This document shows positions 35,408-64,000 of a stretch of 64,000 nt of DNA, piece after piece. The position numbers and the translations under genes were made by a program. The stretch comes from Candidatus Firestoneibacteriota bacterium (GTDB lineage: Bacteria; Oederibacteriota; Muellerivitia; Muellerivitales; Muellerivitaceae). Where the stretch lies: assembly GCA_013286205.1 (NCBI GenBank), contig JABDGD010000011.1, positions 90-64,089 of the forward strand, read 5' to 3'. The notes below the pieces were generated by a model that was not told the DNA's origin, searched no databases, and was given only the letters and a program-made list of their open reading frames with translations. Position 1 is the first letter of the stretch, and each line of letters starts with the position of its first letter.

Positions 35408-35437
35408 TAAAACCTACTAAAGATTCTGATGTATTTT

Positions 35438-38257: not shown

Positions 38258-38356
38258 AACCTCGGTGAATTGGGAAGGCGAGCCATATGTTAGCTGGTTT
38301 GAGGGAACAATTTAACCGAAATTGAGGTGAAATCCGCGTCTATATAAGGTTTTTGA

Positions 38357-38668
38357 TTAAAACTTAATCCAAACAACCCCATCTTCAACCACAGTAGGAA
38401 AAGTATTGAGCTTCATATCCGGTTCTTCCAGACATTCACCCGTTTTAATATTCGACCGGTAACCATGAGCTTTACAGATGATCAGATCGCCCGCGGTATT
38501 CCGCGGATCAAGTCTCACTTCGGCATGAGGACAGTAAACGCCGGTCGCGTAAACCATTTCGCCGCGACGGTGCAGCATGACCGCCATATTCTCCACTTCC
38601 ATCTCAACGCTTTTGTTGTCGATGAGTTGGTTGAAAAGAGCGGCTTTTTTAAATCCCGGCTGATCCAT
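38357..38668 (-). CDS. Rieske [2Fe-2S] ferredoxin-like protein (NirD-type small Rieske)
   Basis: Carries the Rieske ligand pattern CPH-x16-CKAH (VYCPHAEVRLDPRNTAGDLIICKAHG). The start was chosen at the Met of MDQPGF (38668) so that it does not overlap the upstream gene; the ORF track runs to 38704. Confidence 0.75.
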   Translation of the reverse strand: MDQPGFKKAALFNQLIDNKSVEMEVENMAVMLHRRGEMVYATGVYCPHAEVRLDPRNTAGDLIICKAHGYRSNIKTGECLEEPDMKLNTFPTVVEDGVVWIKF

Positions 38669-38675
38669 AAAACCT

Positions 38676-39710: not shown

Positions 39711-39723
39711 AACGTTTCCTTAG

Positions 39724-40644: not shown

Positions 40645-40663
40645 AAATTCGTCCTTTTAGACA

Positions 40664-42058: not shown

Positions 42059-42142
42059 AACACCTCAAGTTCAAATCAAATCGAAGTCTAGTTTATACGC
42101 CCGGGCCAAACCCAGTAAATATCTACTTAACTATAGTTAAAA

Positions 42143-43255: not shown

Positions 43256-43305
43256 TCAAAACCTTTTTTCGAAATAGAAGAAAAAGAGAGGAAAAAACCA
43301 ACAAC

Positions 43306-43647
43306 CTAAAACACGAATAAATTTAAAGCGAAAAGAACAACACCGATGGCCAGGGCGGCCAAAAAGCCGGCCAGAGCGATTCTGGGCAAGTCCCAATTCA
43401 GGTTTTTCTCTTTTTGACTGAAGCTCACATTGGTCAAGCCGTCATTTTCAGCTAAATGAGCACAGCGGTCAGCCGAGAATGATTTTGAAGCCCAGGCGGT
43501 TGTCCAGCATTGGCGGCAAACCTTTTGGGCGCAGTGGGGGCATTCAGCGAAGTCCTTCGGATAAAGCGTCAGCTTGGTATCGCAAATCTGACAGCGATTT
43601 TCACCCGCGACAACTGTAGAGTTTTTTCTGGATAGCTTGTTGGACAA
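43306..43647 (-). CDS. tail-anchored hypothetical protein: N-terminal triple CxxC zinc-ribbon-like domain plus a C-terminal TM helix
   Basis: 113 aa. It has the Cys pairs CQIC...CPHC...CRQC, then IALAGFLAALAIGVVLFALNLFVF at the extreme C-terminus. The TTG start makes the coding call less certain. Confidence 0.5.
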   Translation of the reverse strand: MSNKLSRKNSTVVAGENRCQICDTKLTLYPKDFAECPHCAQKVCRQCWTTAWASKSFSADRCAHLAENDGLTNVSFSQKEKNLNWDLPRIALAGFLAALAIGVVLFALNLFVF

Positions 43648-43768
43648 CTGTTTCGCCCTCGTTTTTTATAGCGGATTTTCGTTGGATCGACCGTGAAAGT
43701 TTACTATCGGGAAGGTGTTTTTTAAACTCTATTCGCCATTTCATTGGACTGGCGCGAAAAACCAAACT

Positions 43769-44704
43769 CTATTGGCGCAGCTTTCCTGAGGACATTTCCT
43801 CCAGATAGCTTTGATAGGTTAACCGGATGCCCTCTTGAAGGCTGACCTTGGCTTTCCATCCCAGCGCGGTTAATCGGGATACATCCATCAACTTCCGCGG
43901 CGTTCCATCCGGCTTAGTCGTATCCCAACTCACTTCACCCGGATAGCCAACCATCCCAGCTACCCCTAAGGCCAATTCATTAATCGACACATCCTCGCCC
44001 AGACCGACGTTTACCAGATCGGGAGGGTTATCAAGACCCAGCAAAAAAGCACAGGCATCCGCCAAATCATCCACATACAAAAATTCCCGTTTCGGAGTAC
44101 CCGTTCCCCACAAAACCACTTTTGAATTTCCAGAAGCCTTGGCCTCGTGGAACTTGCGAATCAAAGCGGGCAGAACGTGCGAATTCTGAAGATGGTAATT
44201 ATCGCCAGGTCCATAAAGATTGGTCGGCATCGCGGAATGAAAAAGAACCCCGTACTGTTTTCTATAATATTCGCACATCTTCAATCCCGCGATCTTAGCG
44301 ATGGCGTAGGCTTCGTTGGTCGGTTCTAACGGACCAGTTAAAAGACTGTCTTCCGGCATGGGTTGAGGCGCCAACTTGGGATAGATACAGGAACTTCCCA
44401 AAAAAAGCAGACGTTTCACACAGGCGCGATGGGCGCCTTCAATGCAATGGGTGGCTATGGCGAGATTTTGAAGAAGAAATTCGGCTGGATAGGTGTTATT
44501 CGCCAGAATGCCTCCAACCTTCGCCGCCGCGATAATGGCCGTATCCGGTTTTTCTTTTTCATAAAAATCAAAAACCTGCTTTTGGTTCGCTAAGTCCAAT
44601 TGGTTACGATCCCTCAGTAAAAGTTCCACGCCTTTCTCCGCGCGGAAACGTCTTACCAGGGCCGAGCCCACCATGCCTTTATGCCCAGCGATAAATAGTT
44701 TCAA
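43769..44704 (-). CDS. fcl: GDP-L-fucose synthase (GDP-4-keto-6-deoxymannose 3,5-epimerase/4-reductase)
   Basis: Motifs: [20 protein letters not shown] and YAIAKIAG. It sits immediately downstream of gmd and uses a TTG start. Confidence 0.9.
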
Positions 44705-44750
44705 TGATGACCCTTACTTTGAAATTCTGAACGCCTGAGTCGACCGTTGA

Positions 44751-45761
44751 TTAGGCGTCTCTCTTCTTTTCTTTAACGGCCATTTCCATGTCATGGGCCA
44801 CCATGCGATGCACCAATTGCTCGAATGAGGTCTCATTGCGCCATCCCAAAACACGGCGGGCTTTAGTCGAATCGCCCTTGAGGTAATCCACTTCAGTGGG
44901 CCGCAAGTAGCGAGCGTCAAACTTGACGTATTTTTTCCAGTCCAGTTTGGCGCAGTCAAAAGCTACTTTTAAAAAGTCTTTCACTGAATAGGTTTCACCC
45001 GTAGCGATGACGTAATCATCAGCCTTCTTTTGCTGAAGCATGAGCCACATGCCCCTGACAAATTCCTTGGCGTCGCCCCAGTCTCTCTGCGCGTCCAAAT
45101 TGCCAAGATAAAGCTCTTTTTGAAGACCCAATTTGATTCGTCCCAGCGCCCGGGTAATTTTGCGGGTCACAAAGGTCTCTCCACGCCGTTCGCTTTCGTG
45201 GTTGAAAAGGATGCCGTTAGAAATATGAAGGCCGTAAGCTTCTCTGTAATTTTTGGCGGCCCAAAAAGAATAGAGTTTCGCTACCCCGTAAGGGCTGCGC
45301 GGATAAAAGGGACTCTTTTCGTTATAGCCTTTTTTAGGACAATCCAACCCGCCATAAAGTTCCGAACTGCTGGCTTGATAAAACTTGGCTTTCGGGCAGG
45401 CGGAACGCATAGCTTCCAAAAGCTTGAGGGTGCCGATACCGGTCACTTCCCCGGTGTATTCGGGCTGGTCAAAAGAAACGCGAACATGACTTTGAGCGCC
45501 CAGATTATAAATTTCATCCGGTTTAATTTGGTGAAGCAGTTTGAAAAGCCCTGAAGAGTCGGACAGGTCGCCGAAATGAAGAAACATTCTCACGCCATGG
45601 ACATGGGAATCCTGATAGATATGGTCAATCCGCTGGGTATTGAAGGAAGAAGACCGGCGCACCATGCCGTGAACTTCGTAACCCTTTTCCAGGAGAAAAT
45701 CCGCCAGCCAGGAGCCATCCTGACCCGTAATACCTGTAATAAACGCCTTTTTCTTTTTCAT
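44751..45761 (-). CDS. gmd: GDP-mannose 4,6-dehydratase
   Basis: Motifs: [40 protein letters not shown] and NHESERRG. Confidence 0.95.
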
Positions 45762-45848: not shown

Positions 45849-47054
45849 TCACGGCGCCAGAAGTTTTTTAAGTTCGCTTTCCCAACCATCCAACACGGCC
45901 TTTTTCGAGAAATACTTTTGATAAGTGTTATGACAATGCGTAAAAAGTTCCAACTTACGGCGATTATCCATGGAAAAAGCCGTCATATCGGCGGCAATTT
46001 CATTGGTGTTTTTATCCGTCAAAACCCAGCCCAGACCATATTGCCGAATCCATCCGGCAATCGCCGAAACTTCATCGCCCTCAAAAAGAATGGGCCGGCC
46101 TACGGCTAAAGCCCCAAAGAATTTAGAGGGAACCGCCACGCCCGTATAGGAAGACTTCAGTGACACTATATGGATATCGGGAGCGGACAAGCGGTCCATC
46201 AGCTTGTCGACAGAAGCAAAAGGCACAAAACGAATATTGGTGTCCTTCTCCGTCAAATAGGATTTCAAAACTTCTACCCGCTTGCCTCGCGCGCTAAAAA
46301 CAAAGCTGGCGGCTTCGCCCATTTTTCTGGCCAGGGTCACTGTTTTCTCAAACTCATGTGGATGACTAAGATTGCCGGAATAAAGCAAACCCAAAGAAGA
46401 GTTTCCGAATAGGTTTTTTCTTTCATCCGCGTCAAACGACAACGCGACCGCAGGTTCTTCAAGCGCCCATGGCGTCAAAGTAGCGTTTTCACGAATGGGA
46501 TATTCCTCTAACTTTTTCCGCATGCAGGCGCCTAAATCAACAACCACATCACACTTCCGATAAGCCCATCGGAGCATTTTCTTTAAGAAACGAACCACCC
46601 CACTGTTTTCGGAAATAAGTCCCTCAGCCACCGCGTATTCGGGATAAAGGTCAAAACACCAATGGGCTATTTTTGTTCGGGGCCATCGCAGTTTGAGGAA
46701 AGGAACCAACAGCACGGCAAAAATGGGATCGGTACCGATCACGACAGCGTCGGGACTTCTGGTCAAGAAAGCCCGAAACAACCAGGCCATTTCTACCCAG
46801 GCGGCATTGAGAACGCGGCCGATAAACCGATGCTGGTTGAAAGCCGGACGCCAAACCCGCCGTATCAAAACCCCATCCGCTTTTTCTGATTTTAAAGAGT
46901 AGTTTTGATCCTCGTGGTGACAGCTTCGGTTGCAGGGCCAGGTTTCCACTTCCCAGTTTTTAGCCGACAACCCTTCACCCAGACCCGTAAATTGCAAAGC
47001 ACTGACCACATCATCGGGACGGTAATATTGATAAAGGAGAAGAACTTTGGGCAC
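45849..47054 (-). CDS. GT4-like glycosyltransferase (WcaI-like)
   Basis: 401 aa. The N-terminus KVLLLYQYYRPD resembles WcaI-type GT-B enzymes. It uses a GTG start. The family call is from memory. Confidence 0.7.
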   Translation of the reverse strand: MPKVLLLYQYYRPDDVVSALQFTGLGEGLSAKNWEVETWPCNRSCHHEDQNYSLKSEKADGVLIRRVWRPAFNQHRFIGRVLNAAWVEMAWLFRAFLTRSPDAVVIGTDPIFAVLLVPFLKLRWPRTKIAHWCFDLYPEYAVAEGLISENSGVVRFLKKMLRWAYRKCDVVVDLGACMRKKLEEYPIRENATLTPWALEEPAVALSFDADERKNLFGNSSLGLLYSGNLSHPHEFEKTVTLARKMGEAASFVFSARGKRVEVLKSYLTEKDTNIRFVPFASVDKLMDRLSAPDIHIVSLKSSYTGVAVPSKFFGALAVGRPILFEGDEVSAIAGWIRQYGLGWVLTDKNTNEIAADMTAFSMDNRRKLELFTHCHNTYQKYFSKKAVLDGWESELKKLLAP

Positions 47055-47101
47055 GGGTTAGGAATCCTTTGACTGAATCATGGGCGCGGATAAAAGACAG
47101 C

Positions 47102-48064
47102 TCAACGCTTTTTATCCACCAGCTTTTGTAACGCTGACTTCATCACCTTCGGATGAGCCGCGCCCCTCGCCGGGTAAGGTACATAGGGAATGAGGTTTCG
47201 CGATACTCCCTCTTCTTGTTTAAGGCCTATCCAATAAAAGTAAATCCCATGAAGAAAAGCGTAGCGAAAACCAGTTTTTCCATCCAGAAAACCTAATTTC
47301 ACGATGTAGCGGTAAAGAAAAAATAAGAAGTGCCGTAAGGGGAATTTCCAAAAGAAACGCCTCAGCCACATGCGTCTTTGATCCGCCTCCCCAAACAAAC
47401 GGGGTTTCACATCCCCGGTAACATTGCCTTCCATCATAGCCGCCGCTTCCATGGAGGAATAACGGTTATGCTTTTCAATCCAATCCGCTAATCCCTTACT
47501 ATTTTCATTCAAATGGTCCACGAAACTATGGAACCGGATGGTTTTTCCCTTCACGAGCGCGTGTTCATTCACAGACCGGTTTTCAAACGCCGCTTTGCCC
47601 GATTTCCACAAGCGCAGGTCGTAATTGTTAGTCGTGCCACCCCAGCGAAGCCGGTGACCCATAAAAATCATGGCCCGGCGGAAGTAAACACCTTCCGCAT
47701 CCTGTTCAGCCGCGCTCCAAAAAGCTTCAGCTTCTTTTTTAAATGCAGGGGTCACCCGTTCATCCGCGTCCAGTTTCAGCGTCCAGGCGCCTTTGATCGG
47801 CAAGTGACGAAGCGCCCAGTTCCATTGGCTGGAGTAATTCTCAAAACGGTGTTGAACCACGCCGACCCCATCCCTGCTTCGCGACAGGGCGATGTCGACC
47901 GTTCGGTCAGTGCTGTAAGAATCCACCACGAAAATCTCGCGGGCCCAACCCGAGACCGAATCCAGGCATTCGGACAAATTTCTTTCCTCGTTAAAGGTCA
48001 TCACAATAACGGTCAGATCGGTCATGGTCGGATTTTCACTTTTGCTTTTTGATTTCAGAACCAT
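47102..48064 (-). CDS. GT2-family glycosyltransferase
   Basis: Motifs: TVIVMTFNEERNL, VVDSYSTDRT and LDADE (DXD). Confidence 0.85.
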   Translation of the reverse strand: MVLKSKSKSENPTMTDLTVIVMTFNEERNLSECLDSVSGWAREIFVVDSYSTDRTVDIALSRSRDGVGVVQHRFENYSSQWNWALRHLPIKGAWTLKLDADERVTPAFKKEAEAFWSAAEQDAEGVYFRRAMIFMGHRLRWGGTTNNYDLRLWKSGKAAFENRSVNEHALVKGKTIRFHSFVDHLNENSKGLADWIEKHNRYSSMEAAAMMEGNVTGDVKPRLFGEADQRRMWLRRFFWKFPLRHFLFFLYRYIVKLGFLDGKTGFRYAFLHGIYFYWIGLKQEEGVSRNLIPYVPYPARGAAHPKVMKSALQKLVDKKR

Positions 48065-51271: not shown

Positions 51272-52504
51272 TTATGTTTTAGCCGTTACCCGGGAAAGCC
51301 GGGAAAGAGCCGTGATCAAACCATAAAAGATCAGAATTTGATAACCGAGGGTCATATTAATATAACCCTCAAAAAAGGAACCGACAAAATAAGAGCAAAA
51401 GCAGGCAAAAAGCAGCCTCTCGGCATTTTTCAAAAACGGTTTCTGGTGATCCATTAAGTATTTTAAGTTTTTGAAAATAAGAAACCAAACCAGTAAAAGC
51501 AGAGCCAGACCGACTATACCACCCCGCAAAGCGATCCAAAGGTAAGAGTTCTCCGAGGCTTGGATTTCATTCGTCGGCAAACCAAAAACAGGGTTTTGCG
51601 TGAACTGCGACCAGAGCAGCGACCAGGAGGCCGCCCGGGTATTAGCGCCGCTCAACACCCGGTTGATCGCGATCGTGAACTCTGGAAGCAAGTTAGAAAC
51701 CGCCAAAAGCGGAATCGCTAACAGCCCCACGCAGAGGAAAACCAGCCCTTTTCTCGTGGAAAAAATGTAAACACCCACCCCCACGACTGCCATTAAAAAG
51801 CCCGTTCGGGATCCTGTCCAGACCAGTCCAATACCACACAACAGCGTTAACAGAATCCAGAAATACCTTTCGCGTTTTCCCAGCACGCTTTGCGACAGCC
51901 ACAAACAGACGAGAACGGAGATGGAGAACATTACCGCGGCAAAATTGGGGTGAGCCGAAACGCCAAAAAGCCTCCCATTCCAAACCTCTTGCGACGGATC
52001 CCATAAAAACTGGATGGCTGTCGCGGCAAGGAATAAAATGGTGCCGCCCGCCACACTGCGGAAAAACCATTGAACATCCTCGAAATTATTAATCCAGGAA
52101 GCAACCACCATCCCCATCGAAAACAGGAAAAGCAAATCAATCAACGCTCTTTGATAAATTTCCTGGTCGTTGATAAAAGAAATCCTGAAAAAATCGACGG
52201 CCAGCAAAAAGAGTTGAAGACTCATTAACGTCGCGAAAGCTAAAGACGGCTTCACCCCCAGCCAGCCGCTTTTCTTTCTATTAAAAAAAGGCAGGCAGAT
52301 CACGGCCAAAAGGCAAAGAAGCCTGCTTTTACCCCTGATGATTTCCAGTGGTTCGGCTAAAAAAAGCGCCTCACTTGGTTTAGTCATATTTGAGATAAAA
52401 AGAACAAATGAAAGGAGAGCCCATTTTCGGTTGGGAGAAAATATCAAATACAGTAAAAAAGCGATGGCCGACGCGCCCAGTAAAATGTCTATCAATATGT
52501 TCAT
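51272..52504 (-). CDS. O-antigen ligase/polymerase-family membrane protein (Wzy_C domain type)
   Basis: 410 aa with about 10-12 TM segments. It carries the characteristic WTGSRTGFLMAVVG segment and a periplasmic loop. Confidence 0.75.
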   Translation of the reverse strand: MNILIDILLGASAIAFLLYLIFSPNRKWALLSFVLFISNMTKPSEALFLAEPLEIIRGKSRLLCLLAVICLPFFNRKKSGWLGVKPSLAFATLMSLQLFLLAVDFFRISFINDQEIYQRALIDLLFLFSMGMVVASWINNFEDVQWFFRSVAGGTILFLAATAIQFLWDPSQEVWNGRLFGVSAHPNFAAVMFSISVLVCLWLSQSVLGKRERYFWILLTLLCGIGLVWTGSRTGFLMAVVGVGVYIFSTRKGLVFLCVGLLAIPLLAVSNLLPEFTIAINRVLSGANTRAASWSLLWSQFTQNPVFGLPTNEIQASENSYLWIALRGGIVGLALLLLVWFLIFKNLKYLMDHQKPFLKNAERLLFACFCSYFVGSFFEGYINMTLGYQILIFYGLITALSRLSRVTAKT

Positions 52505-52527: not shown

Positions 52528-53712
52528 TTATGATCGGTTTAATTTCTTATTTCCCACCAGAACTAGTCCACCCATCGTAGCCAAAATCCAAATCGCGGGC
52601 ACCAGCCCGTAATAAATATGAAAAAATTCCAGTAACAATCCGTCCTGAACCCTGGTTTGTAAAAAATCGATGATCCGGCTGAAGTAACAGGTCAGGAAGA
52701 GACAAAGGATCAGTAGAATTTTAAACCATCTCAGCTTGAAAGAAGATTCAAACAGAAGGATCAACGGGAAAATCACAATCACCAGATCATAGGCCCGGTG
52801 ATAAATCACCAATACGGAAATAAACCCCAAAACAGTCAAAACTAATAAATCGTTCGATTTTCTATTCAAAAAACAAACGAGGGTCGCGGCCAAAAGTAAT
52901 ATTCCAGATAAAAACGCCGGAATCAGGGCTGGAATGTGGGAATCCATTTGCGCGCAGAGACTGAAAAAATCGATATAGCCATCGGTGAGCAGCCCCGAAG
53001 AACACATCAGCGGTTCTTTAATCAGATCGATTGGATTGGCGTTGATCCAATAGGCCGCAAACAGATGCAAACACAAATGAATACCCACCGCGACGAACAA
53101 AGGCTGGAATCGTCTTTTATAAATGAAATAAATGGCTAGTGGAATGATCGTGGCGTATTTGAAAAAAGACAGGGCCAGAAAAACACCTGAAAGTACGGGC
53201 TTCTTATCTAACACCAGCAGCGCCAATGAGAAAAAACAAAGACTGAACATGGTGTGCTGTCCGTTTCCCACTAAATTTCTCCAGGGGGTACTCATCAAGA
53301 ACAAACAGGAAATCACCAGGTAAACAAAGGGCGACTGATTCTTTAAAAAAACCTTAAACAAGGCGAAAAGGGATAAAGCGGTAAATACAAGATTGGACCC
53401 CAGCCACAGCCATTTCGCTATCGGCCAAGAAAATAACGCGTAAGGCCATAAGAGCATTAAACAGGATGGAAACTGATTGGGGCTGAGCGGATGCGGCATA
53501 TAACTATCTGAATCCACCGTTTGATGGGAAAGAACCATCTCATAAGGATTTTTCTGCTCCAACAAAACCCTGGCCGAGTCCCATTGAAAATCCATACTGC
53601 TCACTTGAACGAAAACCGCGTTGCGAATACCCGCCGCCAAGGAAATTGCGGTTAAAAAAACCAGGACAACGGAAATGAATTTTTTAGAACAAAAAATACT
53701 TTTTAAATTCAA
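52528..53712 (-). CDS. polytopic membrane protein, GT87/DUF2029-like (GT-C) glycosyltransferase candidate
   Basis: 394 aa. An early acidic loop (SSMDFQWDS) and NLVGNGQHTMFSL resemble the GQ-containing motif of DUF2029/GT87, from memory. The TTG start overlaps the GT9 stop. Confidence 0.6.
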   Translation of the reverse strand: MNLKSIFCSKKFISVVLVFLTAISLAAGIRNAVFVQVSSMDFQWDSARVLLEQKNPYEMVLSHQTVDSDSYMPHPLSPNQFPSCLMLLWPYALFSWPIAKWLWLGSNLVFTALSLFALFKVFLKNQSPFVYLVISCLFLMSTPWRNLVGNGQHTMFSLCFFSLALLVLDKKPVLSGVFLALSFFKYATIIPLAIYFIYKRRFQPLFVAVGIHLCLHLFAAYWINANPIDLIKEPLMCSSGLLTDGYIDFFSLCAQMDSHIPALIPAFLSGILLLAATLVCFLNRKSNDLLVLTVLGFISVLVIYHRAYDLVIVIFPLILLFESSFKLRWFKILLILCLFLTCYFSRIIDFLQTRVQDGLLLEFFHIYYGLVPAIWILATMGGLVLVGNKKLNRS

Positions 53713-55712: not shown

Positions 55713-57569
55713 TTATTGCACGACTTGAAACAGATATACCGTTCCAGTTCCAGGCGTCAGCTGATAAGGCCGTCTTTCATACTGTATCGTTGCAATGGTT
55801 TTCACCGGCGTCATGGCGGTAAATTTGCCATACATGGATTCTCCCATAACCCCATAACGGACATGATAATGATCAAGAGAAGTTTTTATTTCATCAGGAC
55901 TTACAATTAAAAGATATTGAACCGGCATGACAATCGGGTGCTTCTTAACCGCATCGTAGGTTAGGTCATCCATAATCATCGGTTCGGTCGGAGCTATATG
56001 TTCATCCTGAAGCGCCCTCTGAATCTTTACGTCTAATGCGTTTCTATCCGTCCAGAAGGACTGACTTGGCCCCTCATACCCCGCAAGAAATTCTTTCGTA
56101 AAGTTGCAATAAACTAGCGCCAAACACAAAACAGCGGTTATCAGCATATAACAGTAAAAACCCGCAGATAATAACGGTTTAAATTTATCATAAGCCGCGA
56201 TTTTGGACGTCCCGGGAAACATCAGCTTGAGAGGCCATAAAAACGCGGCCAAAACCATCACCACGAATAGAAGTAATGAAATTTTATAATAGTGTTTCGT
56301 GATATTAAGGATGAATGGAATAAAAAACGAAAGGAATAAAGCCGATAAAAAGTAAAGTCGCTTTTTCTCGGCCTCATTTATCTTTGAGGGCCATCGAAAA
56401 GCCGCTTCGAAAGGCCAAAGCAATAAGCCCACAACCATGAGCGAACAGACAAAAAATGAAATCTCGTAGAAGCTTTCAGTTATGTTAAACGCAAATGGCA
56501 CAAACAACGAAATCATAATGGACACAATCAGATAAAATTGTTTTCTTTCCTCGTCGCCCTTTAAAAAGCAAAAACAAGCAATCAATTTCCACAAAACATA
56601 AAAAATAAAGAAGATAACCGTCGTTTCAATTAGCGCATCAGCTAAAGAATCAAAAATATTTGTCGACTCTTTTTCCGGCAAGAAATTCGACTGATAAGAT
56701 TTTTGAAACCACATCCGATCAAATGTATCCCGCGTTATGTGCTCACGATACGACAACGAAAGTTCCTCTTTAAATTGTTCGGGTGCCCGAAACAAATCCA
56801 TTGGATTAACCGCTTGTTTCCCCATGTTTTGGGCAATACCAGAAACAGATCCACAAGACAAAAACTGTTTATTGTGCATGTCGAGAGATGCGCGAATGAT
56901 TAACAATGTGGCGATCATAAAAATCAAAACATAAAAAATACGATGAATTCTTTTTTTAAGTTTGGCTGCCGCCATAACAAAAGACACAGCTAAAACTAAA
57001 AACAGATACAAAGCCTTGGGATGTACATAAGTAATTAGGCTGAACAACAGCAACATCACGAACGAATAAATGTAGATGACCGAGCTTTTACGGGTCAAAA
57101 GCATGCACCGAGCAATCACAAATAGGCACACACACACAGTGATGATGAGTATTTCCGGCCGAAGCATTACAAACCCGTATAACACCGGACCCATTGTCAT
57201 CAGCAAAAGAAGCGGCCAAAAATCCAGCGAGCCCTTTCGAAGGTTGTGAATAATCAAAACAATATAGATGGTAAACAACCCTACATAAGGAATAATTCGA
57301 TAAGAGAACCAGTCGCTGCCGAACTGGCTGATGACTGACCAAAATGCCGCGGCTGGAATCAGTAACAAACCAGGTCGCACTAAAAAGCCTTCAGGACAAA
57401 ATGGCGTCACCGACTGTTTGAAGCCGCCATTAATAAAAAAACGTTCAAGAAATAATTTGTAGGAAAATTCGTCCTGGTACAGAGGAGAAAAAAGGGTAAG
57501 ACCGATAGCGATTAAAATGACAGATAAAACCAGAAATGACGGAAGCGACTGTTTGATGATTCGCATCAT
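55713..57569 (-). CDS. polytopic membrane protein with a DE motif after TM1 (ArnT/GtrC-like GT-C candidate) and an internal tandem duplication
   Basis: About 618 aa from ATG 57569 (RBS GGGAAG). TM1 is followed by PLYQDEFSYKLF. It has at least 12 hydrophobic segments and a ~130-aa C-terminal soluble domain. It follows directly after the aminotransferase gene. Confidence 0.8.
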   Translation of the reverse strand: MMRIIKQSLPSFLVLSVILIAIGLTLFSPLYQDEFSYKLFLERFFINGGFKQSVTPFCPEGFLVRPGLLLIPAAAFWSVISQFGSDWFSYRIIPYVGLFTIYIVLIIHNLRKGSLDFWPLLLLMTMGPVLYGFVMLRPEILIITVCVCLFVIARCMLLTRKSSVIYIYSFVMLLLFSLITYVHPKALYLFLVLAVSFVMAAAKLKKRIHRIFYVLIFMIATLLIIRASLDMHNKQFLSCGSVSGIAQNMGKQAVNPMDLFRAPEQFKEELSLSYREHITRDTFDRMWFQKSYQSNFLPEKESTNIFDSLADALIETTVIFFIFYVLWKLIACFCFLKGDEERKQFYLIVSIMISLFVPFAFNITESFYEISFFVCSLMVVGLLLWPFEAAFRWPSKINEAEKKRLYFLSALFLSFFIPFILNITKHYYKISLLLFVVMVLAAFLWPLKLMFPGTSKIAAYDKFKPLLSAGFYCYMLITAVLCLALVYCNFTKEFLAGYEGPSQSFWTDRNALDVKIQRALQDEHIAPTEPMIMDDLTYDAVKKHPIVMPVQYLLIVSPDEIKTSLDHYHVRYGVMGESMYGKFTAMTPVKTIATIQYERRPYQLTPGTGTVYLFQVVQ

Positions 57570-57574
57570 TGAAA

Positions 57575-58660
57575 TTACTTCCCAATCATTTGACACGCAG
57601 AAATTACTTTATTGATGTTTTCTTCCGGCATATGCGGCGTAAGCGGCAAACTGAGCACCTCGCGGCTTAGCTCTTCCGCGACGGGATATGATTTTGATAA
57701 ACCATATGCCGGTTGTGCGTGCGGCGGCATCGGATAATGAAGTAATGTTTCCATACCCAGCCCCAGCAAGCGTTCGCGCAATTGGTCGCGTTTTGGACTT
57801 CGAACGACAAATAAATGCCACACCGGCTCGGCCCAGCTGGGCACTTGAGGCAAAATCAGGCTGCAGTCTTTAAGCCCTTTTAGATAGGCCGACGCAATCG
57901 TGCGGCGGCTGGCGTTATCCTCATCAAGCACCGCTAATTTAACGCGTAAAAAAGCCGCCTGAAGTTCATCCAATCGCGAATTAAAGCCTTTTTCGTCATG
58001 CTGGTATTTAACGGCCGATCCGTAATTGCGCAATGATTTGATTTTGTCGGCCAATTGGACATCGTCAGTCGTGATGGCTCCTCCATCCCCCAGCGCGCCC
58101 AGGTTTTTCCCTGGATAAAAACTGAAAGCAGCCGCGTGACCCAATCCGCCTACTCTTTTGCCGCGATATCGCGCGCCATGGGCTTGGGCCGCATCTTCCA
58201 GCACTTTCAGTCCATGTTTTTTAGCGATCGACATCACCGCGTCCATATCCGCAGGTTGACCATATAAATGAACAGGAATGATCGCTTTGGTACGCGGTGT
58301 AATCGCCGCTTCAATCTGAAGAGGATCAATATTATAAGTAGCGGGGTCTGGCTCTACGGCCACCGGAGTAGCGCCGACCTGGCTAACGGCGAGCCATGTG
58401 GCGATAAAGGTATTAGAAGGAACAATAACTTCATCCCCCGGACCAACGCCCCAGGCTTGCAACACCAGGTGCAAAGCTTCCAAGCCATTGCCGACACCCA
58501 TGCAATATTGAACCTGGCAATAACCGGCGAATTCTTTTTCAAAAGCTTCCACTTCTTTACCCAGCACAAACCAACCCGAATCCAGTACGCGATCCAGCGC
58601 GGCGTGCAATTCTTTGCGAAAACGGTTATTAACGGATTTTATGTCGAGAAAAGGAATCAT
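57575..58660 (-). CDS. DegT/DnrJ/EryC1/StrS-family PLP-dependent nucleotide-sugar aminotransferase (FdtB/QdtB-like by context)
   Basis: Carries the N-terminus [14 protein letters not shown]...[17 protein letters not shown] and the PLP-lysine region [16 protein letters not shown]. It has a 4-nt overlap with the ketoisomerase gene. Confidence 0.9.
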
Positions 58661-59094
58661 TTAACCGCGTCTTTTGAAGGTTGGTTGACGATCTTCAAAA
58701 ATTCATCGTAATCACGGATGTAATCCGCCTCATCAAAATAGTCTGAGGCAAGCACCATGCAAACCGCGCCGGAAGAAAAGTTATTCACTTCCCGCCAAAT
58801 GTAGGGACAGATGGTAAGGCCCGAATAGCTCCGGTTTAACTGGACTGTTTTTCTTTCTTTTCCATCATCGAGAACGATGTCAAAGGAACCCGACATAGCG
58901 ATAACGAACTGGTGCAGGGCCTTATGCGCGTGTCCGCCACGATCAGAACCGCCCGGCACGTCATAAAGATAATAAACACGTTTGATTAAAAAATTGACTT
59001 GCCGCTCAGATTCCAGATAGGTCAAATTTCCGCGAGGGTCGGAAATCTTGGGAAGTTGGATGAGTTTGCAGTCGTGGATGGTGCCTTTGGGCAT
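58657..59094 (-). CDS. dTDP-4-dehydro-6-deoxyglucose 3,4-ketoisomerase (FdtA/QdtA, WxcM-like cupin)
   Basis: Shows close motif agreement with FdtA as I remember it: [32 protein letters not shown] and [19 protein letters not shown]. Confidence 0.88.
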
Positions 59095-59471
59095 TACTTA
59101 GTCCTTCCTACCAGAAACCATTTATTCAGCGCGTAAGTAAAAGGTAGCAAAATAACAACATTTAAAAGCGGCGCGACCCGCGCATCGATGCGCAACAGAT
59201 TCACCGCCACAAATAACAATCCTAATCCGATTAGATATTGGCCCACATACACCAGTGGGTATTGCGCAATCTTTGCCCATGAAAACGGCGTTTTAAACAC
59301 AAAGAAGCTGTTCAACCCGTAGGCAATAAAAATACCCACAATAAAGGAAACGGTAAAGGCGATTTTATAATCAAAAAATTGAATAACTGCTAGATAAAGC
59401 AAATATGTGATAACTGTATTTGTTCCTCCGACCAGCAAAAACCGAAAAAACGGTTTTTTAAATAACTTCAT
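59094..59471 (-). CDS. GtrA-family small membrane protein (polyprenyl-phosphate-sugar flippase family)
   Basis: Has 4 TM segments and the signature N-terminus KKPFFRFLLVGGTNTVITYLLY. The Met at 59471 gives about 125 aa; the ORF track extends to 59531. Confidence 0.85.
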   Translation of the reverse strand: MKLFKKPFFRFLLVGGTNTVITYLLYLAVIQFFDYKIAFTVSFIVGIFIAYGLNSFFVFKTPFSWAKIAQYPLVYVGQYLIGLGLLFVAVNLLRIDARVAPLLNVVILLPFTYALNKWFLVGRTK

Positions 59472-60381
59472 CAATAACCACTTCCGGACGTTTATTAACT
59501 TCATCGAAAATCCGCCAGAGATACTCTCCAATCACCCCCAGCATAATAATAATCAAACCAAGCAGAAAGGTAATGAGGGCTGTCAGCGTGGCAAAGCCTG
59601 GCACGGGTATTTTCCCAAACAGGGCATGCAACACCACACTCACACCGTAAGAAAAACTGACGAGCGATACAAACGCGCCGATGGTAGAAATAAGCCGAAT
59701 AGGCGTCACCGAAAAACCTAACATCACATCAAGAAATGCCTTAACTTTTTTAGAAAACGTCCAGCGAGATTTACCGTGTAATCGCTTAGCGCGATTGTAA
59801 TGAATGACTTCCGGTTTGAACCCCAGCCAATAAGCCAAAAGAGGGGTGTAAAGATTTTTAGAGCTTTGTTGCATATGAGGCAGAAGCGCTTTGTCCATAA
59901 GGGCCATGTCATATCCACCACTGGGATAATCACTTAAAACCAACTTGTGCAGAAACCAGTAATAAAGGACGGCGAAAAACTTAGTCACCGGCGGATCATG
60001 GCGGCTGACACGTTCACAAATAGTAAATTTCGAACCAGCCTTCCACTTATCCGCCATTTGCAAAATAAGTTCAGGTGGATCCTGTAAATCCGCGGCCAAT
60101 GTCGTGAAACAGTCCCCGGTCACAAACTGCATTCCACATTTGGAAGCGTGGACAGCGCCAAAATTCCGGGTCAATTTAATGATTTTGGTTTCCGGTCTCG
60201 TTTTTTTAATACGAAGCAGTTCTTCTTGAGAGGTGTCGCCCGACCCGTCATTGACAAAAATCAATTCCAATGCCAAATCTCGAGTTTTAAGTTTGCTTTC
60301 AATCCCCTGTAACTGCTCAAAAAGAATCGGCAGGGACTCGGCGTTAAAATAAACTGGCACGATGATTGATACTTTTTTCAT
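59458..60381 (-). CDS. GT2 polyprenyl-phosphate glycosyltransferase (GtrB/ArnC/DPM1-like, two C-terminal TM helices)
   Basis: Motifs: VSIIVPVYFNAE, FVNDGSGDTS and LAADLQDPP. Two TM helices follow, then the family-typical GEYLWRIFDEVNKRPEVVIDE. Confidence 0.9.
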   Translation of the reverse strand: MKKVSIIVPVYFNAESLPILFEQLQGIESKLKTRDLALELIFVNDGSGDTSQEELLRIKKTRPETKIIKLTRNFGAVHASKCGMQFVTGDCFTTLAADLQDPPELILQMADKWKAGSKFTICERVSRHDPPVTKFFAVLYYWFLHKLVLSDYPSGGYDMALMDKALLPHMQQSSKNLYTPLLAYWLGFKPEVIHYNRAKRLHGKSRWTFSKKVKAFLDVMLGFSVTPIRLISTIGAFVSLVSFSYGVSVVLHALFGKIPVPGFATLTALITFLLGLIIIMLGVIGEYLWRIFDEVNKRPEVVIDEVI

Positions 60382-61316
60382 TGGATTACCATTTCATAGT
60401 GATCGTGAACCACGGCCCGCGCTCCGAAACCTTCCTTCTGCTCTACCAATCCCACATTCAACACTTTGCCATCCTCTTCCGTCGAAATACCAAAATCGAA
60501 ATAGGGATGGTCCGCGTACACCGTCTCTATTAATTCAGCAAACAGCAGGTCTAGCGCGCCCAACTCTTTTCCATTTTCACTGGCGGAAATATATTGAACG
60601 TGCGCCACACGATCCGTAGCATAAACCACCACACCCGCTAACATCGTCTTATCCTCAAAACAGCCAAACAGGTGAATATGATCAGGAAAACGCGAAGCCA
60701 GTAACTCTATTTCAGCCAGACTATGTACCGGCTTAACGTTATAACGCTGACGCAGGTTTTCTTCCAGAATCGTCCAAAAAACTCCAAAATCTTGGCTTTT
60801 CACCACTTTCAACCCGGCATTTCGAGCTTGCTTGATTTTACGTAAGCGGCGTTCCTGATAGGGCTGCCGATGGGATTGCTGAATCACCGCCATGACGTCG
60901 CGGCGGAATAATACAGCACCCTGGCGAAATAAGGCGTAACGATCCTCTTCTGCGGGAACGCGGCTATAAATATACGGAATCGTTTTATAAACGAGATTTT
61001 TGATACCCGCGGATCGGGCATAAGGATGAAACGTGTCAAACACTTCGAGCATACGCGGCGTCGTCATCGACGCGTCCGATACTAGTCCGCCATAAGTAAG
61101 ACCGCCATGGCTGAAAAGTCTATGTTCTTTCTCGTTAGCCGGCATAACGGCTAAGAGCTTGTCTTTATCATCTATAAATAACAGACTGTGATCGGTAAAG
61201 CGGTCAGCGTGATAATCCATATAATCGCGTTTAATAAGAAACGTTCCGTTTTTAGAAGTGTCAATAAACGCGTCCCAACGCGATTTCATTTCAGGCTTGT
61301 AGCGAATGATGTTCAT
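60378..61316 (-). CDS. FemAB-like / tandem GNAT-fold acyltransferase-family protein
   Basis: 312 aa. The pattern RWDAFIDTSKNGTFLIKRDYMDYHADRFTDHSLLF...GGLTYGG... matches polysaccharide-cluster proteins usually annotated as GNAT/FemAB-like, from memory. It has 4-nt overlaps on both sides. Confidence 0.6.
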   Translation of the reverse strand: MNIIRYKPEMKSRWDAFIDTSKNGTFLIKRDYMDYHADRFTDHSLLFIDDKDKLLAVMPANEKEHRLFSHGGLTYGGLVSDASMTTPRMLEVFDTFHPYARSAGIKNLVYKTIPYIYSRVPAEEDRYALFRQGAVLFRRDVMAVIQQSHRQPYQERRLRKIKQARNAGLKVVKSQDFGVFWTILEENLRQRYNVKPVHSLAEIELLASRFPDHIHLFGCFEDKTMLAGVVVYATDRVAHVQYISASENGKELGALDLLFAELIETVYADHPYFDFGISTEEDGKVLNVGLVEQKEGFGARAVVHDHYEMVIQ

Positions 61317-62233
61317 CCGATTAACTCCGCCACAGCGAATCCTTCGCGTCCAAAATCATTGCCGTTATAAAAACAATAGGTTTTAGCGCCGATAGTAATC
61401 ACAGCCGCGTACATAATCGCTTGGCTGTCGAATTGGCCAGCCGACACATCTAACCCCATCTCATGATCTTTACGAGTCCAATGAAGTCCATCTTTCGATT
61501 CAGCGTAGCCCATGCGGTAAGCACCGAGCGAACGCTTGCGGATGGAGTAAAAAAGCTGATAGTCCTCGGCGCCGCGCTGAACCACCCAGGGACGTCCAAA
61601 ACCATGTTCATCGGGGTTTGTCACCGTCAGCGATAATCGACCCGCTTTTTGCCAGGTTAATCCGTCGCCTGATTCTTGATATCTCAAATCGTAAACCGGC
61701 ATCGATTTGCCGTCCAAATCGATCCACTGATTTCCGCCAATGTACCAGAGACGCATGCGGTTCTGTTGCCACAAAGCAAAGGGCCCGCATCGAAAATAGA
61801 GTTCTTCATCCGAACGTTCCAGAACCGGCGTATGGCCTAGACGTTTAAAGGTCAGCCCCCCGTCATCACTGACAGCAACACCCGTTAATAATCGATAACG
61901 GATTTGGGTGCCTAACTCAAAGCCCACGTAATACATAAAGTAGCGTGATCCTACCGCCACAACACTGCATGGCAGCACACCGTTCTCGTCAAATGTTCCC
62001 GGCAGGCCAATGTCAAATAGCGGCGCGGATGAAACCGAAATCACTTCCAAGGGATTTTCTGGATTGAGATCAACATAGCCTGGACGGCCCACCATCTTTT
62101 CGTCGCACATCGCGCAATAAACACGCAAAACATTGTTATTCATCAAAACCGGAGTGGGAATCATGGCATGTGATTTAGCCCAGGGTTTGCTTCCGTCCGG
62201 CGTATAGACAATGCCCAGTTTACGCCATTTCAT
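61313..62233 (-). CDS. beta-propeller protein (GH43/32/68/130-superfamily-like fold), function unknown
   Basis: 306 aa with a recurring blade signature: SDDGGLTF, SGDGLTW, SKDGLHW. I recognise no catalytic assignment. Confidence 0.6.
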   Translation of the reverse strand: MKWRKLGIVYTPDGSKPWAKSHAMIPTPVLMNNNVLRVYCAMCDEKMVGRPGYVDLNPENPLEVISVSSAPLFDIGLPGTFDENGVLPCSVVAVGSRYFMYYVGFELGTQIRYRLLTGVAVSDDGGLTFKRLGHTPVLERSDEELYFRCGPFALWQQNRMRLWYIGGNQWIDLDGKSMPVYDLRYQESGDGLTWQKAGRLSLTVTNPDEHGFGRPWVVQRGAEDYQLFYSIRKRSLGAYRMGYAESKDGLHWTRKDHEMGLDVSAGQFDSQAIMYAAVITIGAKTYCFYNGNDFGREGFAVAELIG

Positions 62234-62913
62234 TAGAGGTCATCTTTCACGCGATTTAAACGACGGGCATTACCTCGCGCTTCTCCTGCGGCCCCTTGGA
62301 CAATACTGTCTTCCGCCACATCCTTCATGACCAGCGCGCCCGCGCCAATCACACAGTCCTTGCCGATCAAAACATTATTGGCCACTGTGGCGTTGACACC
62401 CACAAAACAACCCTGCCCCACTGTGACAAAACCCGAAATAACCGCATGGGAGGCGACAAAGCAATGATCCTGGATAGTGGAATGATGTCCAATATGATTG
62501 CCGCTCCACAGCACCACGTTCGTGCCGAGCTTGACGAAAGGTTGAACCACGTTATTTTCAAAAATAAAGCAATGTTCTCCTACCTCTACATTAGGCCAGA
62601 CAAAAGCACGGCTGCTGATATAGGAAGCGGGGGCAAAACCCTTCTCTTTTGCCGCGCGGTATAAGCGGGTTCGCAAACGATTGAGATTGGTATAAACCAA
62701 CGCGGCAAAAAAAGAATGTTCCTTTGGTTCGAATTGCTTTTCCAGGGATTCAAAAGCAACTACCGGCAAACCAAACAGTGTGTTTTGTTTTAAAAACGCT
62801 TCCTCAACGCTGAAAGCCACCACTTCGTATTCCGAATCATGCGTAAAATACTCATAGGCGATCTGCGCAAAAGCCGAATCACCCAAAATCACAAGTTTGC
62901 GTTTTTTTGACAT
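62233..62913 (-). CDS. NeuD/PglD-family sugar N-/O-acyltransferase (N-terminal Rossmann-like domain plus left-handed beta-helix)
   Basis: Carries the N-terminus KLVILGDSAFAQIAYEYF...YEVVAF and the C-terminal hexapeptide repeats IGHHSTIQDHCFVASHAVISGFVTVGQGCFVGVNATVANNVLIG. Confidence 0.85.
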   Translation of the reverse strand: MSKKRKLVILGDSAFAQIAYEYFTHDSEYEVVAFSVEEAFLKQNTLFGLPVVAFESLEKQFEPKEHSFFAALVYTNLNRLRTRLYRAAKEKGFAPASYISSRAFVWPNVEVGEHCFIFENNVVQPFVKLGTNVVLWSGNHIGHHSTIQDHCFVASHAVISGFVTVGQGCFVGVNATVANNVLIGKDCVIGAGALVMKDVAEDSIVQGAAGEARGNARRLNRVKDDL

Positions 62914-62918
62914 CGTGT

Positions 62919-63686
62919 TTATGGCCTCACAATGAGAATGTCTTCACGACGGTTGGCCATCGGCAAATCATTAGCCTGCGGCACCACATAGGCATGAAAG
63001 CCAGCCAGCCGCGCCCTTTGCAGAACAGACAGCACAACCGAATCGTCTAGACTTCCCTCTTTAATTCGAGTCAATTCAGCAGGAGGCTTTTCATTAGTAC
63101 CTGTAAATTCCCGGTGGCTGGCAAGACCCGCTTCACTCTCAAAAAACCGCTTCCTCATGCTGACATTAGGAATATCGCCGATCAACATCCGCCCCTGAGG
63201 CGCCAGCAATGTTAATGACTTATCGAGAAAATCGAACGGGTCGGCTTCAGCAAATATGTACTGAAAAACCGAATAAACGATAATCGCGCTTGTTTTTCCC
63301 GTATAGCGTTCAAATAATTCCGGGCAATCTGGATAGCGTGCCGCTATTTTACGGACAGATGCGGACTCGCCGGACAATTGATCCAGCATTTCCTTTGAAT
63401 CAATCAATATAAGTGTTTGTGACTTTTGCTCGGCTCTTTCCATCAGAAACCGTGGAATATCGCTGCATCCACAGCCGATATCGATGATGGTGCTCTTGTC
63501 GCCTTGGAGCGCCGGAAGCTTTGATTCCATATCCTGAAAAATGAGTTTTTCTTTACCCGCCCGGTAAGTATCAGGAAATCCGACTTTTTCATAACGGCTC
63601 AGTGCCGCATCCTTCGCCATGGAGCGAAAATCTTCAAAACCTATATTATTAAAACGCTCAAAATTATCTTTTCGGGGTTCTGTCAT
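62919..63686 (-). CDS. class I SAM-dependent methyltransferase
   Basis: Carries motif I IIDIGCGCSD. The 255-aa protein has a Rossmann-fold methyltransferase layout. Confidence 0.75.
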   Translation of the reverse strand: MTEPRKDNFERFNNIGFEDFRSMAKDAALSRYEKVGFPDTYRAGKEKLIFQDMESKLPALQGDKSTIIDIGCGCSDIPRFLMERAEQKSQTLILIDSKEMLDQLSGESASVRKIAARYPDCPELFERYTGKTSAIIVYSVFQYIFAEADPFDFLDKSLTLLAPQGRMLIGDIPNVSMRKRFFESEAGLASHREFTGTNEKPPAELTRIKEGSLDDSVVLSVLQRARLAGFHAYVVPQANDLPMANRREDILIVRP

Positions 63687-63734: not shown

Positions 63735-63761
63735 AAAAAATCTATCCGTTTTAAAAACGGA
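63735..63761 (-). terminator. weak terminator-like hairpin after the partial upstream gene
   Basis: The minus strand reads UCCGUU-uuuaa-AACGGA followed by UAGAUUUUUUAAUC. The stem is AU-rich and only 6 bp, so this is tentative. Confidence 0.35.
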
Positions 63762-63801: not shown

Positions 63802-64000
63802 GCTATCTTCTTTTCAAGCCCGCCTTCGACAATATTCGCCTAGTGGCCGCCACAACCTCTTTAGGTTTGACCTGAAGGATGCAATGCGGAATATCTGCTT
63901 CGCAAGCGTCAACACAAGGAAGCTTGGCGTGTTTGGGTTGGACAATAATATTTGGTACGCCCCAGGGGCCAAAACGTTTGGGTGAGTTGGCATGCGATTT
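63802..64000 (-). CDS. C-terminal end of a gene running in from beyond the window (GT9 heptosyltransferase-like tail)
   Basis: My minus-strand translation reads ...NVLAPGGVPNIIVQPKHAKLPCVDACEADIPHCILQVKPKEVVAATRRILSKAGLKRR*. The stop TAG is at 63804..63802. The Cys cluster followed by I..V..V resembles the C-terminus of the GT9 protein at 53709-54785. Confidence 0.5.

Follow-up and report, generated by a model that had tools for sequence, protein, structure and literature searches.

A nine-gene block in Candidatus Firestoneibacteriota as a candidate route for a lipid-linked 3-amino-3,6-dideoxy sugar to an envelope glycan

How might an amino sugar built on a dTDP carrier be brought to a glycan of the bacterial envelope? 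The question is raised by a 64,000-nucleotide stretch of DNA from Candidatus Firestoneibacteriota (contig JABDGD010000011.1, assembly GCA_013286205.1), referred to here as the window. In this window, the original prediction had described a module of five coupled genes that combines a three-component glycosylation system of the Gtr or Arn type with enzymes for a 3-amino-3,6-dideoxyhexose. The answer that we consider probable is that a larger block of nine genes forms one glycan-decoration unit, in which a sugar-making part and a delivery part would be joined through a lipid-linked 3-amino-3,6-dideoxy sugar. The predicted decoration of an envelope glycan with a lipid-linked 3-amino(acyl)-3,6-dideoxyhexose is supported by a structural model with a GT-C fold, by the kinship of the family 2 glycosyltransferase (GT2) and by the conservation of the block, from which we infer the sugar and the acceptor.

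Translation of the open reading frames (ORFs) of the window placed all five genes on the minus strand at the coordinates claimed beforehand. They encode a GT2, a GtrA-family protein, an FdtA/QdtA-type ketoisomerase, a DegT-family aminotransferase and a 618-aa polytopic protein, and their successive junctions measure -14, -1, -4 and +5 nt, in agreement with the overlaps and the gap described at the outset. The first junction becomes +19 nt if the GtrA gene starts at TTG 59438, the choice of another gene caller (114 aa). Equally tight junctions (+5, -1, -4 and -4 nt) extend upstream across four more genes to position 63686, the gap between the methyltransferase and acyltransferase genes being 5 nt. 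These four genes travel with the other five in related loci. The conserved unit is a set of nine co-directional, coupled genes from 63686 to 55713 (Table 1), so that the five predicted genes are real but do not give the size of the unit. A consensus scan for promoters and terminators yielded as many sites in the region as expected from shuffled sequence, and the hairpin listed in Table 1 is no more than a hint of an operon or cassette boundary.

Table 1. Position of the nine block genes and of one upstream element in the window
Feature	Coordinates	Strand	Details
SAM-dependent methyltransferase	62919..63686	(-)	255 aa; opens the conserved block; weak Pfam Methyltransf_12/23/25 matches
NeuD/PglB/VioB-family left-handed beta-helix N-acyltransferase	62233..62913	(-)	226 aa; TIGR03570
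GH130-like five-bladed beta-propeller protein	61313..62233	(-)	306 aa; orthologue profile
FemAB-like / GNAT (Acetyltransf_6) protein	60378..61316	(-)	312 aa; PF13480, TIGR03019
GtrB/ArnC-type GT2 polyprenyl-phosphate glycosyltransferase	59458..60381	(-)	307 aa; PF00535 E 1.5e-18
GtrA-family small membrane protein	59094..59471	(-)	125 aa from Met21; PF04138 E 2e-18
FdtA/QdtA-type 3,4-ketoisomerase	58657..59094	(-)	145 aa; PF05523 E 9e-57
DegT-family PLP-dependent aminotransferase	57575..58660	(-)	361 aa; PF01041 E 3e-123
Polytopic protein with predicted GT-C fold	55713..57569	(-)	618 aa from ATG; predicted structure
Terminator-like hairpin	63745..63761	(-)	consensus scan; in the ~125-nt spacer upstream of the block's first gene; weak

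By its sequence the GT2 belongs with the enzymes that attach sugars to a lipid phosphate. In phmmer searches it aligned end to end with GtrB 5eke/5ekp (residues 4-304 against 28-327, E 2e-52) and over its full length with ArnC (E 1e-33), and its catalytic domain matched dolichol-phosphate mannose synthase (DPMS, E 1e-10). In the same way, the NCBIfam models PgfS and ArnC span the protein end to end, with scores under their equivalog cutoffs. Two hydropathy peaks at about residues 233-255 and 258-292 correspond to the two C-terminal transmembrane (TM) helices announced for this protein, whose tail reads ...GEYLWRIFDEVNKRPEVVIDEVI as predicted and is also quoted as GEYLWRIFDEVNKRP... in its C-terminal part. 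The full-length alignment to GtrB and ArnC together with the two C-terminal hydrophobic helices is the reason for this classification, and as between enzymes with lipid and non-lipid acceptors the GT2 groups with the polyprenyl-phosphate glycosyltransferases GtrB, ArnC and DPMS.

The 618-aa protein carries LYQDEFSY at residues 30-37 (QDEFSY at 32-37), in the first loop as was foreseen. It has no Pfam or NCBIfam match, and none of 19 family members matched a Pfam model at E<=10, those of PMT, PMT_2 and ArnT included. A search of the complete set of PDB sequences with the family profile retrieved nothing, and when the family was compared by hhalign with the PMT_2 and GT87 proteins of the window, the probabilities were <1%. 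Membership by sequence in ArnT/GT83 (PMT_2 superfamily) is therefore not found (Pfam E<=10, hhalign probability 0.4% against the PMT_2 protein of the window). An AlphaFold2 model built on 19 homologues (pLDDT 83.9, pTM 0.86) gave a different picture: the first 19 Foldseek matches in the PDB were all GT-C glycosyltransferases with a probability >=0.98, led by ArnT 5f15 (E 6e-6) and followed by STT3, ALG9, ALG3 and EmbA/B/C, and after rank 19 came MFS-type transporters at a probability <=0.15. Some 13 TM helices make up the model, with an alpha/beta domain at the C-terminus (residues about 509-618). D33 and E34 immediately follow TM1 and do not vary among 46 diverse family members; the same holds for E139, H183, P298 and Y538. 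Reading the model helices by the positive-inside rule would place the N-terminus inside and the first loop, the charged invariant residues and the C-terminal domain on the outer face, and the protein is presumed on this model to be a periplasmic transferase.

A two-helix segment of the same protein is duplicated in tandem (56199..56561, minus strand; residues about 337-396 and 398-457, about 60 aa each), with an alignment score of 127 against 26.7 +/- 5.4 for shuffles and a DNA identity of about 60%. The duplicated segment is found only in the window protein and in its closest relative P0002 (alignment A1) and has low pLDDT; since the number of added helices is even, the topology is unchanged. 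Paralogy of the 618-aa protein with three tandem polytopic proteins of about 567 aa, with the GT87 protein or with the Wzy_C protein of the window was considered and rejected, none of them being similar to it.

The other members of the predicted module were recognised as proposed, through PF04138 for GtrA, the PF05523 cupin domain with a conserved catalytic His pair for the ketoisomerase and PF01041 for the aminotransferase. GtrA, whose score is over the gathering threshold, is presumed to be a flippase or an accessory component. The ketoisomerase gives a gap-free alignment with its solved relatives 5tpu, 7n67 and FdtA 2pa7, and QdtA is matched too; the HAH of FdtA corresponds to its H55 and H57, with H55 at the position of the His replaced in the mutant entry 2pae. 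The best match, 5tpu, is not functionally named, and the scores of FdtA and QdtA are alike; we infer from these alignments a product of galacto (Fuc3N) or gluco (Qui3N) configuration. The best solved relatives of the aminotransferase are DesV 2oga (E 2e-128) and QdtB 3frk (E 9e-128), which we take to be both aminotransferases at C-3 of dTDP-keto sugars. The C-4 aminotransferases ArnB and perosamine synthase match less well (E 1e-62 to 1e-71), and no NCBIfam equivalog cutoff is reached by the protein.

Four additional enzymes precede this set. The acyltransferase scores 183 bits with TIGR03570 against a cutoff of 160.8, has the perosamine N-acetyltransferase PerB, PglD and VioB as best solved relatives and is likely to N-acylate the dTDP-3-amino sugar. 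For the GH130-like protein, a four-orthologue profile matched beta-1,2-mannoside phosphorylases of glycoside hydrolase (GH) family 130 (E 1.8e-14 and 2.5e-13), followed by GH117, GH43 and GH32; a single-sequence AlphaFold2 model of it was unusable (pLDDT 31). The FemAB-like protein, recognised by PF13480 (E 8e-7) and by the FemAB-family model TIGR03019 (E 1.4e-14, under cutoff), has a weak PDB match to an aminoacyl-tRNA-dependent peptide synthase (E 0.05-0.2) and may be an aminoacyl or acyl transferase. Finally, the methyltransferase has orthologues in the blocks of three of the loci described below (L006 55%, L002 48% and L021 57% identity). Pfam and NCBIfam revealed no ArnD-type deacylase or deformylase in the block.

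The block recurs in a Rickettsiales metagenome-assembled genome (MAG), in two Polynucleobacter genomes and in two metagenome contigs. In the Polynucleobacter MAG (L006), whose assembly shows apparent frameshifts, all nine genes are present and collinear, and the Rickettsiales MAG (L001) holds eight collinear genes with no other glycosyltransferase near. One metagenome contig (L002) has all nine in rearranged order next to rmlA and rmlB, and another (L021) has eight of the nine, also rearranged and without GtrA, with rmlA, rmlB and an rmlC-like gene within 10 kb. In the isolate Polynucleobacter sp. AP-Kolm-20A-A1 (L007; CP061315) the GT-C gene lies between two GtrB-like GT2 genes and a GtrA-FdtA-DegT group is found 5 kb off, and in a further metagenome contig (L022) FdtA comes directly after GT-C. 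The order GT2-GtrA-FdtA-DegT-GT-C with overlapping stop and start codons is kept in the window, L001 and L006, GtrA standing between the GT2 and FdtA genes in the latter two with 48% identity. In L006 (8416..10200) the FdtA, DegT and GT-C matches are each split over two frames, which is probably a sequencing or assembly error and not pseudogenisation.

The enzymes of the block do not diverge at the same pace. Identity to the window in L001 is 74% for the GT2, 78% for FdtA and 72% for DegT, and the GT2 remains at 71% in L006, 69% in L021 and 49% in L002. Orthologues of the acyltransferase (51-68%), of the GH130-like protein (36-66%) and of the FemAB-like protein (44-58%) were found in L001, L002, L006, L021 and a Ruegeria locus (L015). 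GT-C identity falls to 41% in L001, 28% in L002 and 24% in L006, and steady donor enzymes beside a drifting GT-C would be the pattern expected for a conserved donor with variable acceptors. Because the cassette stands alone in L001, the GtrB-like GT2 is the sole transferase available there for the sugar.

A soil contig (L012) gives a view of how the block may have been exchanged. Downstream of GT-C it is near-identical to the window (GT2 89% and GT9 99% in amino acids), and the gene directly upstream of its GT-C gene matches the gene fragment at the window end (64000..63840, 83% nt). Its GT-C is only 53% identical to the 618-aa protein, and compared with the contig (2867..3092) the window has eight extra genes, from the methyltransferase to DegT (57575..63686, about 6.1 kb), between the GT9 gene and the GT-C gene. 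The difference is of the cassette type, an insertion or a deletion at a glycan locus combined with the replacement of an allele.

The mechanism that these observations suggest would begin with RmlA and RmlB, encoded elsewhere, which would supply dTDP-4-keto-6-deoxyglucose. The FdtA/QdtA-type enzyme would isomerise it to the 3-keto sugar, the DegT enzyme would aminate it at C-3 and the PglD/PerB-type acyltransferase would N-acylate the amino sugar, which the methyltransferase, the GH130-like and the FemAB-like proteins probably tailor further. At the inner face of the membrane the GT2 would move the sugar from dTDP to undecaprenyl phosphate and GtrA would assist the flip of the lipid-linked sugar to the outer face. 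The 618-aa protein would then transfer it in the periplasm to an envelope glycan, D33 or E34 being the probable catalytic acid or base. The acceptor is likely to be the polysaccharide made by the glycosyltransferases further down the same operon.

The closest precedent is wxc region 3 of Xanthomonas campestris pv. campestris, and the overall idea is not new. This region was assigned to the FucNAc side branches on the finished rhamnan O-chain, and mutants in wxcK and wxcN lost these branches and kept the rhamnan backbone (PMC4878081). In parallel, median identities of about 98-99% were reported for wxcL, wxcK and wxcM, and of down to 26% for wxcO (PMC13133917). Like the window, the region combines a DegT-type gene (wxcK), a GT2 (wxcL), an FdtA-type gene (wxcM), a GtrA-like gene (wxcN) and a variable membrane protein (wxcO), so that donor genes are conserved and the membrane protein varies in both; WxcO is likened here by description, not by sequence. 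WxcM is a fusion of isomerase and acetyltransferase, whereas the two are separate genes in the window, which also has the additional methyltransferase, GH130-like and FemAB-like genes. Apart from the Xanthomonas genetics, a lipid-linked Fuc3N or Qui3N donor did not turn up in the literature searched. The initial remark that such a donor was undescribed has to be qualified as to the concept, which exists genetically in Xanthomonas, and stands as to the isolated lipid-linked sugar. To our knowledge the Xanthomonas donor was never isolated or shown biochemically, and the precedent is genetic only.

Three-component systems also include the O-antigen glucosylation by GtrA/GtrB/GtrC in Shigella and Salmonella and the galactose-adding system of Klebsiella (Mann and Whitfield 2016, cited in PMC11127046). 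What the window shares with GtrABC is a GT2 bearing TM helices at its C-terminus (its best solved relative is the GtrB homologue of Synechocystis, sll0501, 5eke/5ekp), a GtrA-family protein, a presumed periplasmic transferase with a predicted GT-C fold and the pairing of conserved donor genes with a variable transferase. It thus holds the elements of a Gtr-type system, namely a GT2 of the lipid-phosphate type, GtrA, a predicted GT-C fold with an acidic first-loop residue and their linkage across loci. GtrABC uses a housekeeping UDP-hexose, whereas the window operon would have its own pathway to a dTDP-3-amino-3,6-dideoxyhexose derivative. The window GT-C matches no Pfam or NCBIfam model, any GtrC-type model there included, and GtrC is likened to it by description, not by sequence.

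The Arn system offers the full-length GT2 homologue ArnC and the top structural match ArnT. There, as proposed for the window, the amino sugar is made by a DegT-family aminotransferase (ArnB is among the DegT matches) and is N-acylated before lipid loading. The window differs from it by the lack of an ArnT/PMT_2 sequence signature, by GtrA in place of ArnE/ArnF, by having no ArnD-type deformylase and by a dTDP-6-deoxyhexose instead of a UDP-pentose. A third parallel is the three-component pentofuranose system of Citrobacter youngae, whose transferase belongs to GT136, a GT-C family recognised only lately and without sequence similarity to older ones (Kelly et al. 2024). This transferase has 11 TM helices with a small helical domain in the periplasm after TM1, a further periplasmic domain at its C-terminus and the essential D31 and E34 a few residues after TM1 (PMC11127046). 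The 618-aa protein resembles it in architecture and in the Asp/Glu after TM1, as compared by published description alone. GT136 depends on a phosphoribose synthase that forms the donor from PRPP and on a MATE protein as flippase, in contrast to the GT2 and GtrA of the window.

Several observations weigh against a single lipid-linked unit. The characterised relatives of the GT2 use UDP-Glc or UDP-Ara4FN, and its proposed use of a dTDP-sugar is read from genomic context. The Foldseek TM-scores of the 618-aa protein are only 0.35-0.45, a range usual between GT-C families, with no sequence link to any of them; because these scores are modest, GT-C is assigned from the model as a fold and not as a family. 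No GtrA homologue was found anywhere in the 21.7-kb locus L021, where the set (7398..11674) is otherwise complete and only 139 nt separate the GT2 and FdtA genes, and GtrA may be dispensable or supplied in trans. Within 10 kb of the close GT-C homologues in L003, L004 and L012 lies no gene for FdtA, DegT or GtrB. In the Ruegeria locus the sugar genes are paired with a soluble Leloir GT2, without GtrA, GtrB or GT-C, and the lipid route is therefore not required for that sugar. The authors of the Xanthomonas study noted possible polar effects in their mutants (PMC4878081). Finally, rmlA and rmlB are not in the window, as had been stated: bona fide RmlA and RmlB queries, taken from a related locus, found nothing above 29% identity, the sole 4,6-dehydratase being Gmd and the sole nucleotidyltransferase ManC-like. 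The contig, at 64,261 nt, hardly extends past the window.

Candidates for these two genes were rejected. The 336-aa PF16363 protein at 45761..44751 proved to be Gmd (513 bits with TIGR01472, whose cutoff is 415), the 306-aa short-chain dehydrogenase/reductase (SDR) carries the motif SSGGAMYGE, which we take to be epimerase-type and not dehydratase-type, and the nucleotidyltransferase at 39710..38676 is ManC-like.

The sugar genes and the GT2-GtrA-GT-C genes could in principle be two interleaved systems, the dTDP-sugar being used by a cytoplasmic Leloir glycosyltransferase and the membrane set serving glucose, GlcNAc or another common sugar, in the manner of classical Gtr. FdtA and DegT usually occur with Wzx and Leloir glycosyltransferases, at least seven more glycosyltransferase genes lie downstream of the block in the window, and the GT-C homologues without FdtA or DegT in L003, L004 and L012 point the same way. 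So does Ruegeria sp. TM1040, a cultured marine bacterium on whose megaplasmid (NC_008043.1, 445506..450579) FdtA and DegT adjoin orthologues of the acyltransferase (53% identity), of the GH130-like protein (36%) and of the FemAB-like one (44%), next to the soluble GT2 mentioned above. None of five further plasmid FdtA-DegT loci has a GtrB, GtrA or GT-C of the window type; three have Wzx with Leloir glycosyltransferases and two have Leloir glycosyltransferases with no annotated Wzx. As all six plasmid loci lack GtrB, GtrA and GT-C, the linkage seen in the window is a minority arrangement and not the default of FdtA and DegT. By its gene content, the sugar-making set is an independent portable unit that could feed either a Leloir transferase or a lipid route. 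The separation into two systems is nevertheless unlikely, given that the gene order with its overlaps is kept in the window, L001 and L006, that the same genes occur together in L002, L007 and L021 and that no other glycosyltransferase lies near the L001 cassette. Moreover, the identity of the GT2 rises and falls with that of FdtA and DegT from locus to locus, and the Xanthomonas mutant in the GtrA-like gene wxcN specifically loses FucNAc (PMC4878081).

The mechanism could also be the one proposed and the acceptor a different one, namely lipid A or the core of the lipopolysaccharide (LPS) as with ArnT, in which case the sugar would tune envelope charge or resistance to cationic peptides. This reading draws on ArnT as the top structural match, on ArnC as a full-length homologue of the GT2, on the GT9 heptosyltransferase-family genes immediately upstream of the block and just downstream, and on the position of the L012 GT-C gene directly after a GT9 gene. 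We give it little weight, as the conserved N-acyltransferase and the lack of an ArnD-type deacylase make the sugar probably neutral, the 618-aa protein has no sequence similarity to ArnT or PMT_2, and STT3, ALG and Emb enzymes score nearly like ArnT. In addition, the fast divergence of GT-C (24-53% identity) suits a variable polysaccharide better than a conserved lipid A.

That the 618-aa protein is instead a Wzy-like polymerase, ligase or transporter, the partner of GT2 and GtrA being encoded elsewhere (for example by the GT87-like gene at 53712..52528), would agree with its lack of a sequence family, its modest TM-scores and the GT87-family GT-C and Wzy_C protein of the same operon, but is very improbable in view of 19 out of 19 confident structural matches to GT-C with MFS and other transporters at a probability <=0.15, the D-E pair invariant at the GT-C position after TM1, a predicted periplasmic C-terminal domain typical of GT-C enzymes, its co-travelling, unlike the GT87 gene, with GT2, FdtA and DegT elsewhere, and distant members that adjoin GtrB-like GT2 genes (L008, L013) or DprE1/DprE2-like genes (L014).

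The 618-aa protein belongs to a large family. An exhaustive profile search retrieved 753 representative clusters at E<=1e-3, of which 234 at E<=1e-30, mostly of about 550 aa, and all ten representatives that were looked up by name were a 'hypothetical protein' or unnamed. A profile scan of genome contigs with a strict family pattern returned one locus, a word-index search with a wider family alignment added only few proteins, and tblastn of GT-C against plasmid and phage collections gave no match. Among the distant members, L008 has a GtrB-like GT2, a DHQS-like gene, an SDR and a C-methyltransferase as neighbours, and L013 has two GtrB-like GT2 genes, rmlA, rmlC and an aminotransferase. In the Alphaproteobacteria MAG RGZA01000013.1 (L014, 5845..10602) the GT-C is flanked by a DprE1-like gene (FAD_binding_4), a DprE2-like gene (short-chain dehydrogenase) and a 259-aa GT2. 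This locus resembles the lipid-linked pentofuranose epimerisation systems of GT136 and of mycobacterial arabinan, and DprE1/DprE2-like genes have been linked to Araf-adding systems (PMC11127046). As judged from gene content, these neighbourhoods would fit a family of polyprenyl-phosphate-sugar-dependent transferases with varied donors.

The family is unnamed and unannotated and is in this sense a new element, its comparison with WxcO and GT136 having been made with their published descriptions only. A bolder proposal, which we put forward tentatively and hold to be rather doubtful, is that the 618-aa protein founds a new GT-C family at CAZy level (about 750 clusters, using polyprenyl-phosphate donors of unusual sugars) and that the six-gene set of FdtA, DegT, PglD-type acyltransferase, methyltransferase, GH130-like and FemAB-like proteins makes an undescribed 3-amino-3,6-dideoxyhexose derivative, perhaps with an amino acid added to the 3-amino group by the FemAB-like protein, which would be delivered to the surface as an undecaprenyl-phosphate sugar.

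The surroundings of the block are those of a chromosomal glycan locus. The window contains carA, pyrB, pyrC, aspS, hisS and pyk and is chromosomal, and its sequence occurs in soil metagenome runs. The AspRS it encodes shares 83-93% identity with MAG proteins and about 55-57% with the nearest matches bearing a lineage name. The same operon continues with a GT2, a GT9, a GT87-like protein, a Wzy_C/ligase-like protein, two GT4, an FkbM methyltransferase, a GDP-fucose pathway and a WcaJ-type initiating transferase, which suggests a heteropolysaccharide or an LPS-type glycan. A GDP-L-fucose route is encoded at 37184..45761 (minus strand) by a bifunctional phosphoglucose/phosphomannose isomerase (PGI/PMI), a ManC-like guanylyltransferase, Gmd and Fcl, together with a WcaJ-type undecaprenyl-phosphate glucose phosphotransferase, and the phosphomannomutase (PMM) gene lies further down the same long operon (30586..31980). 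Fcl, the neighbour of Gmd, scores 482 bits with the GDP-fucose synthase model, just under the cutoff of 500. The main glycan probably contains fucose and is probably started by Glc-1-P.

Between the PMM and PGI/PMI genes lie three tandem paralogues (31977..37141, minus strand). Their products, of 571, 566 and 567 aa, are polytopic, share 69-75% identity with each other and are without Pfam or NCBIfam match. They may represent an unnamed family of membrane glycosyltransferases or polymerases expanded by duplication. Three genes downstream of the module is the GT87-family GT-C (394 aa, 52528..53712, minus strand), and the window further encodes the Wzy_C/O-antigen-ligase-like protein (410 aa, 51272..52504, minus strand) and the PMT_2 (ArnT/PMT-like) protein (763 aa, 9674..11965, minus strand); the genome seems to lean heavily on lipid-linked sugar donors. 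At 26685..29005 (minus strand) a short soluble-type GT2 of 237 aa is followed by a 527-aa protein without Pfam match, and the two might be a couple of lipid-sugar synthase and transferase. In an independent assembly of the same organism (L010, 11807..12861), which is 100% identical, position 48010 of the window is joined to 46826..47880 in inverted orientation. The junction lies beside the genes for the FkbM methyltransferase and GT2 and reflects a real inversion or else a difference between the assemblies.

Three-component systems are a common bacterial route to the serotype-defining side branches that are added after polysaccharide export. Their characterised donors are nearly all common UDP-hexoses, Ara4N or, lately, pentofuranoses, and the window locus, taken with the wxc region of Xanthomonas, indicates that elaborate amino sugars derived from dTDP would travel by this route as well. 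What is new is not the principle but an unannotated GT-C family and an accessory sugar chemistry. A family of hundreds of clusters now has a clear candidate catalytic pair in D33/E34, and the portable six-gene sugar-making set includes GH130-like and FemAB-like enzymes that may act on nucleotide sugars. Assigning these genes would allow the glycan loci of uncultured bacteria to be better annotated, and the assigned donors and transferases would enlarge the toolbox of glycoengineering.

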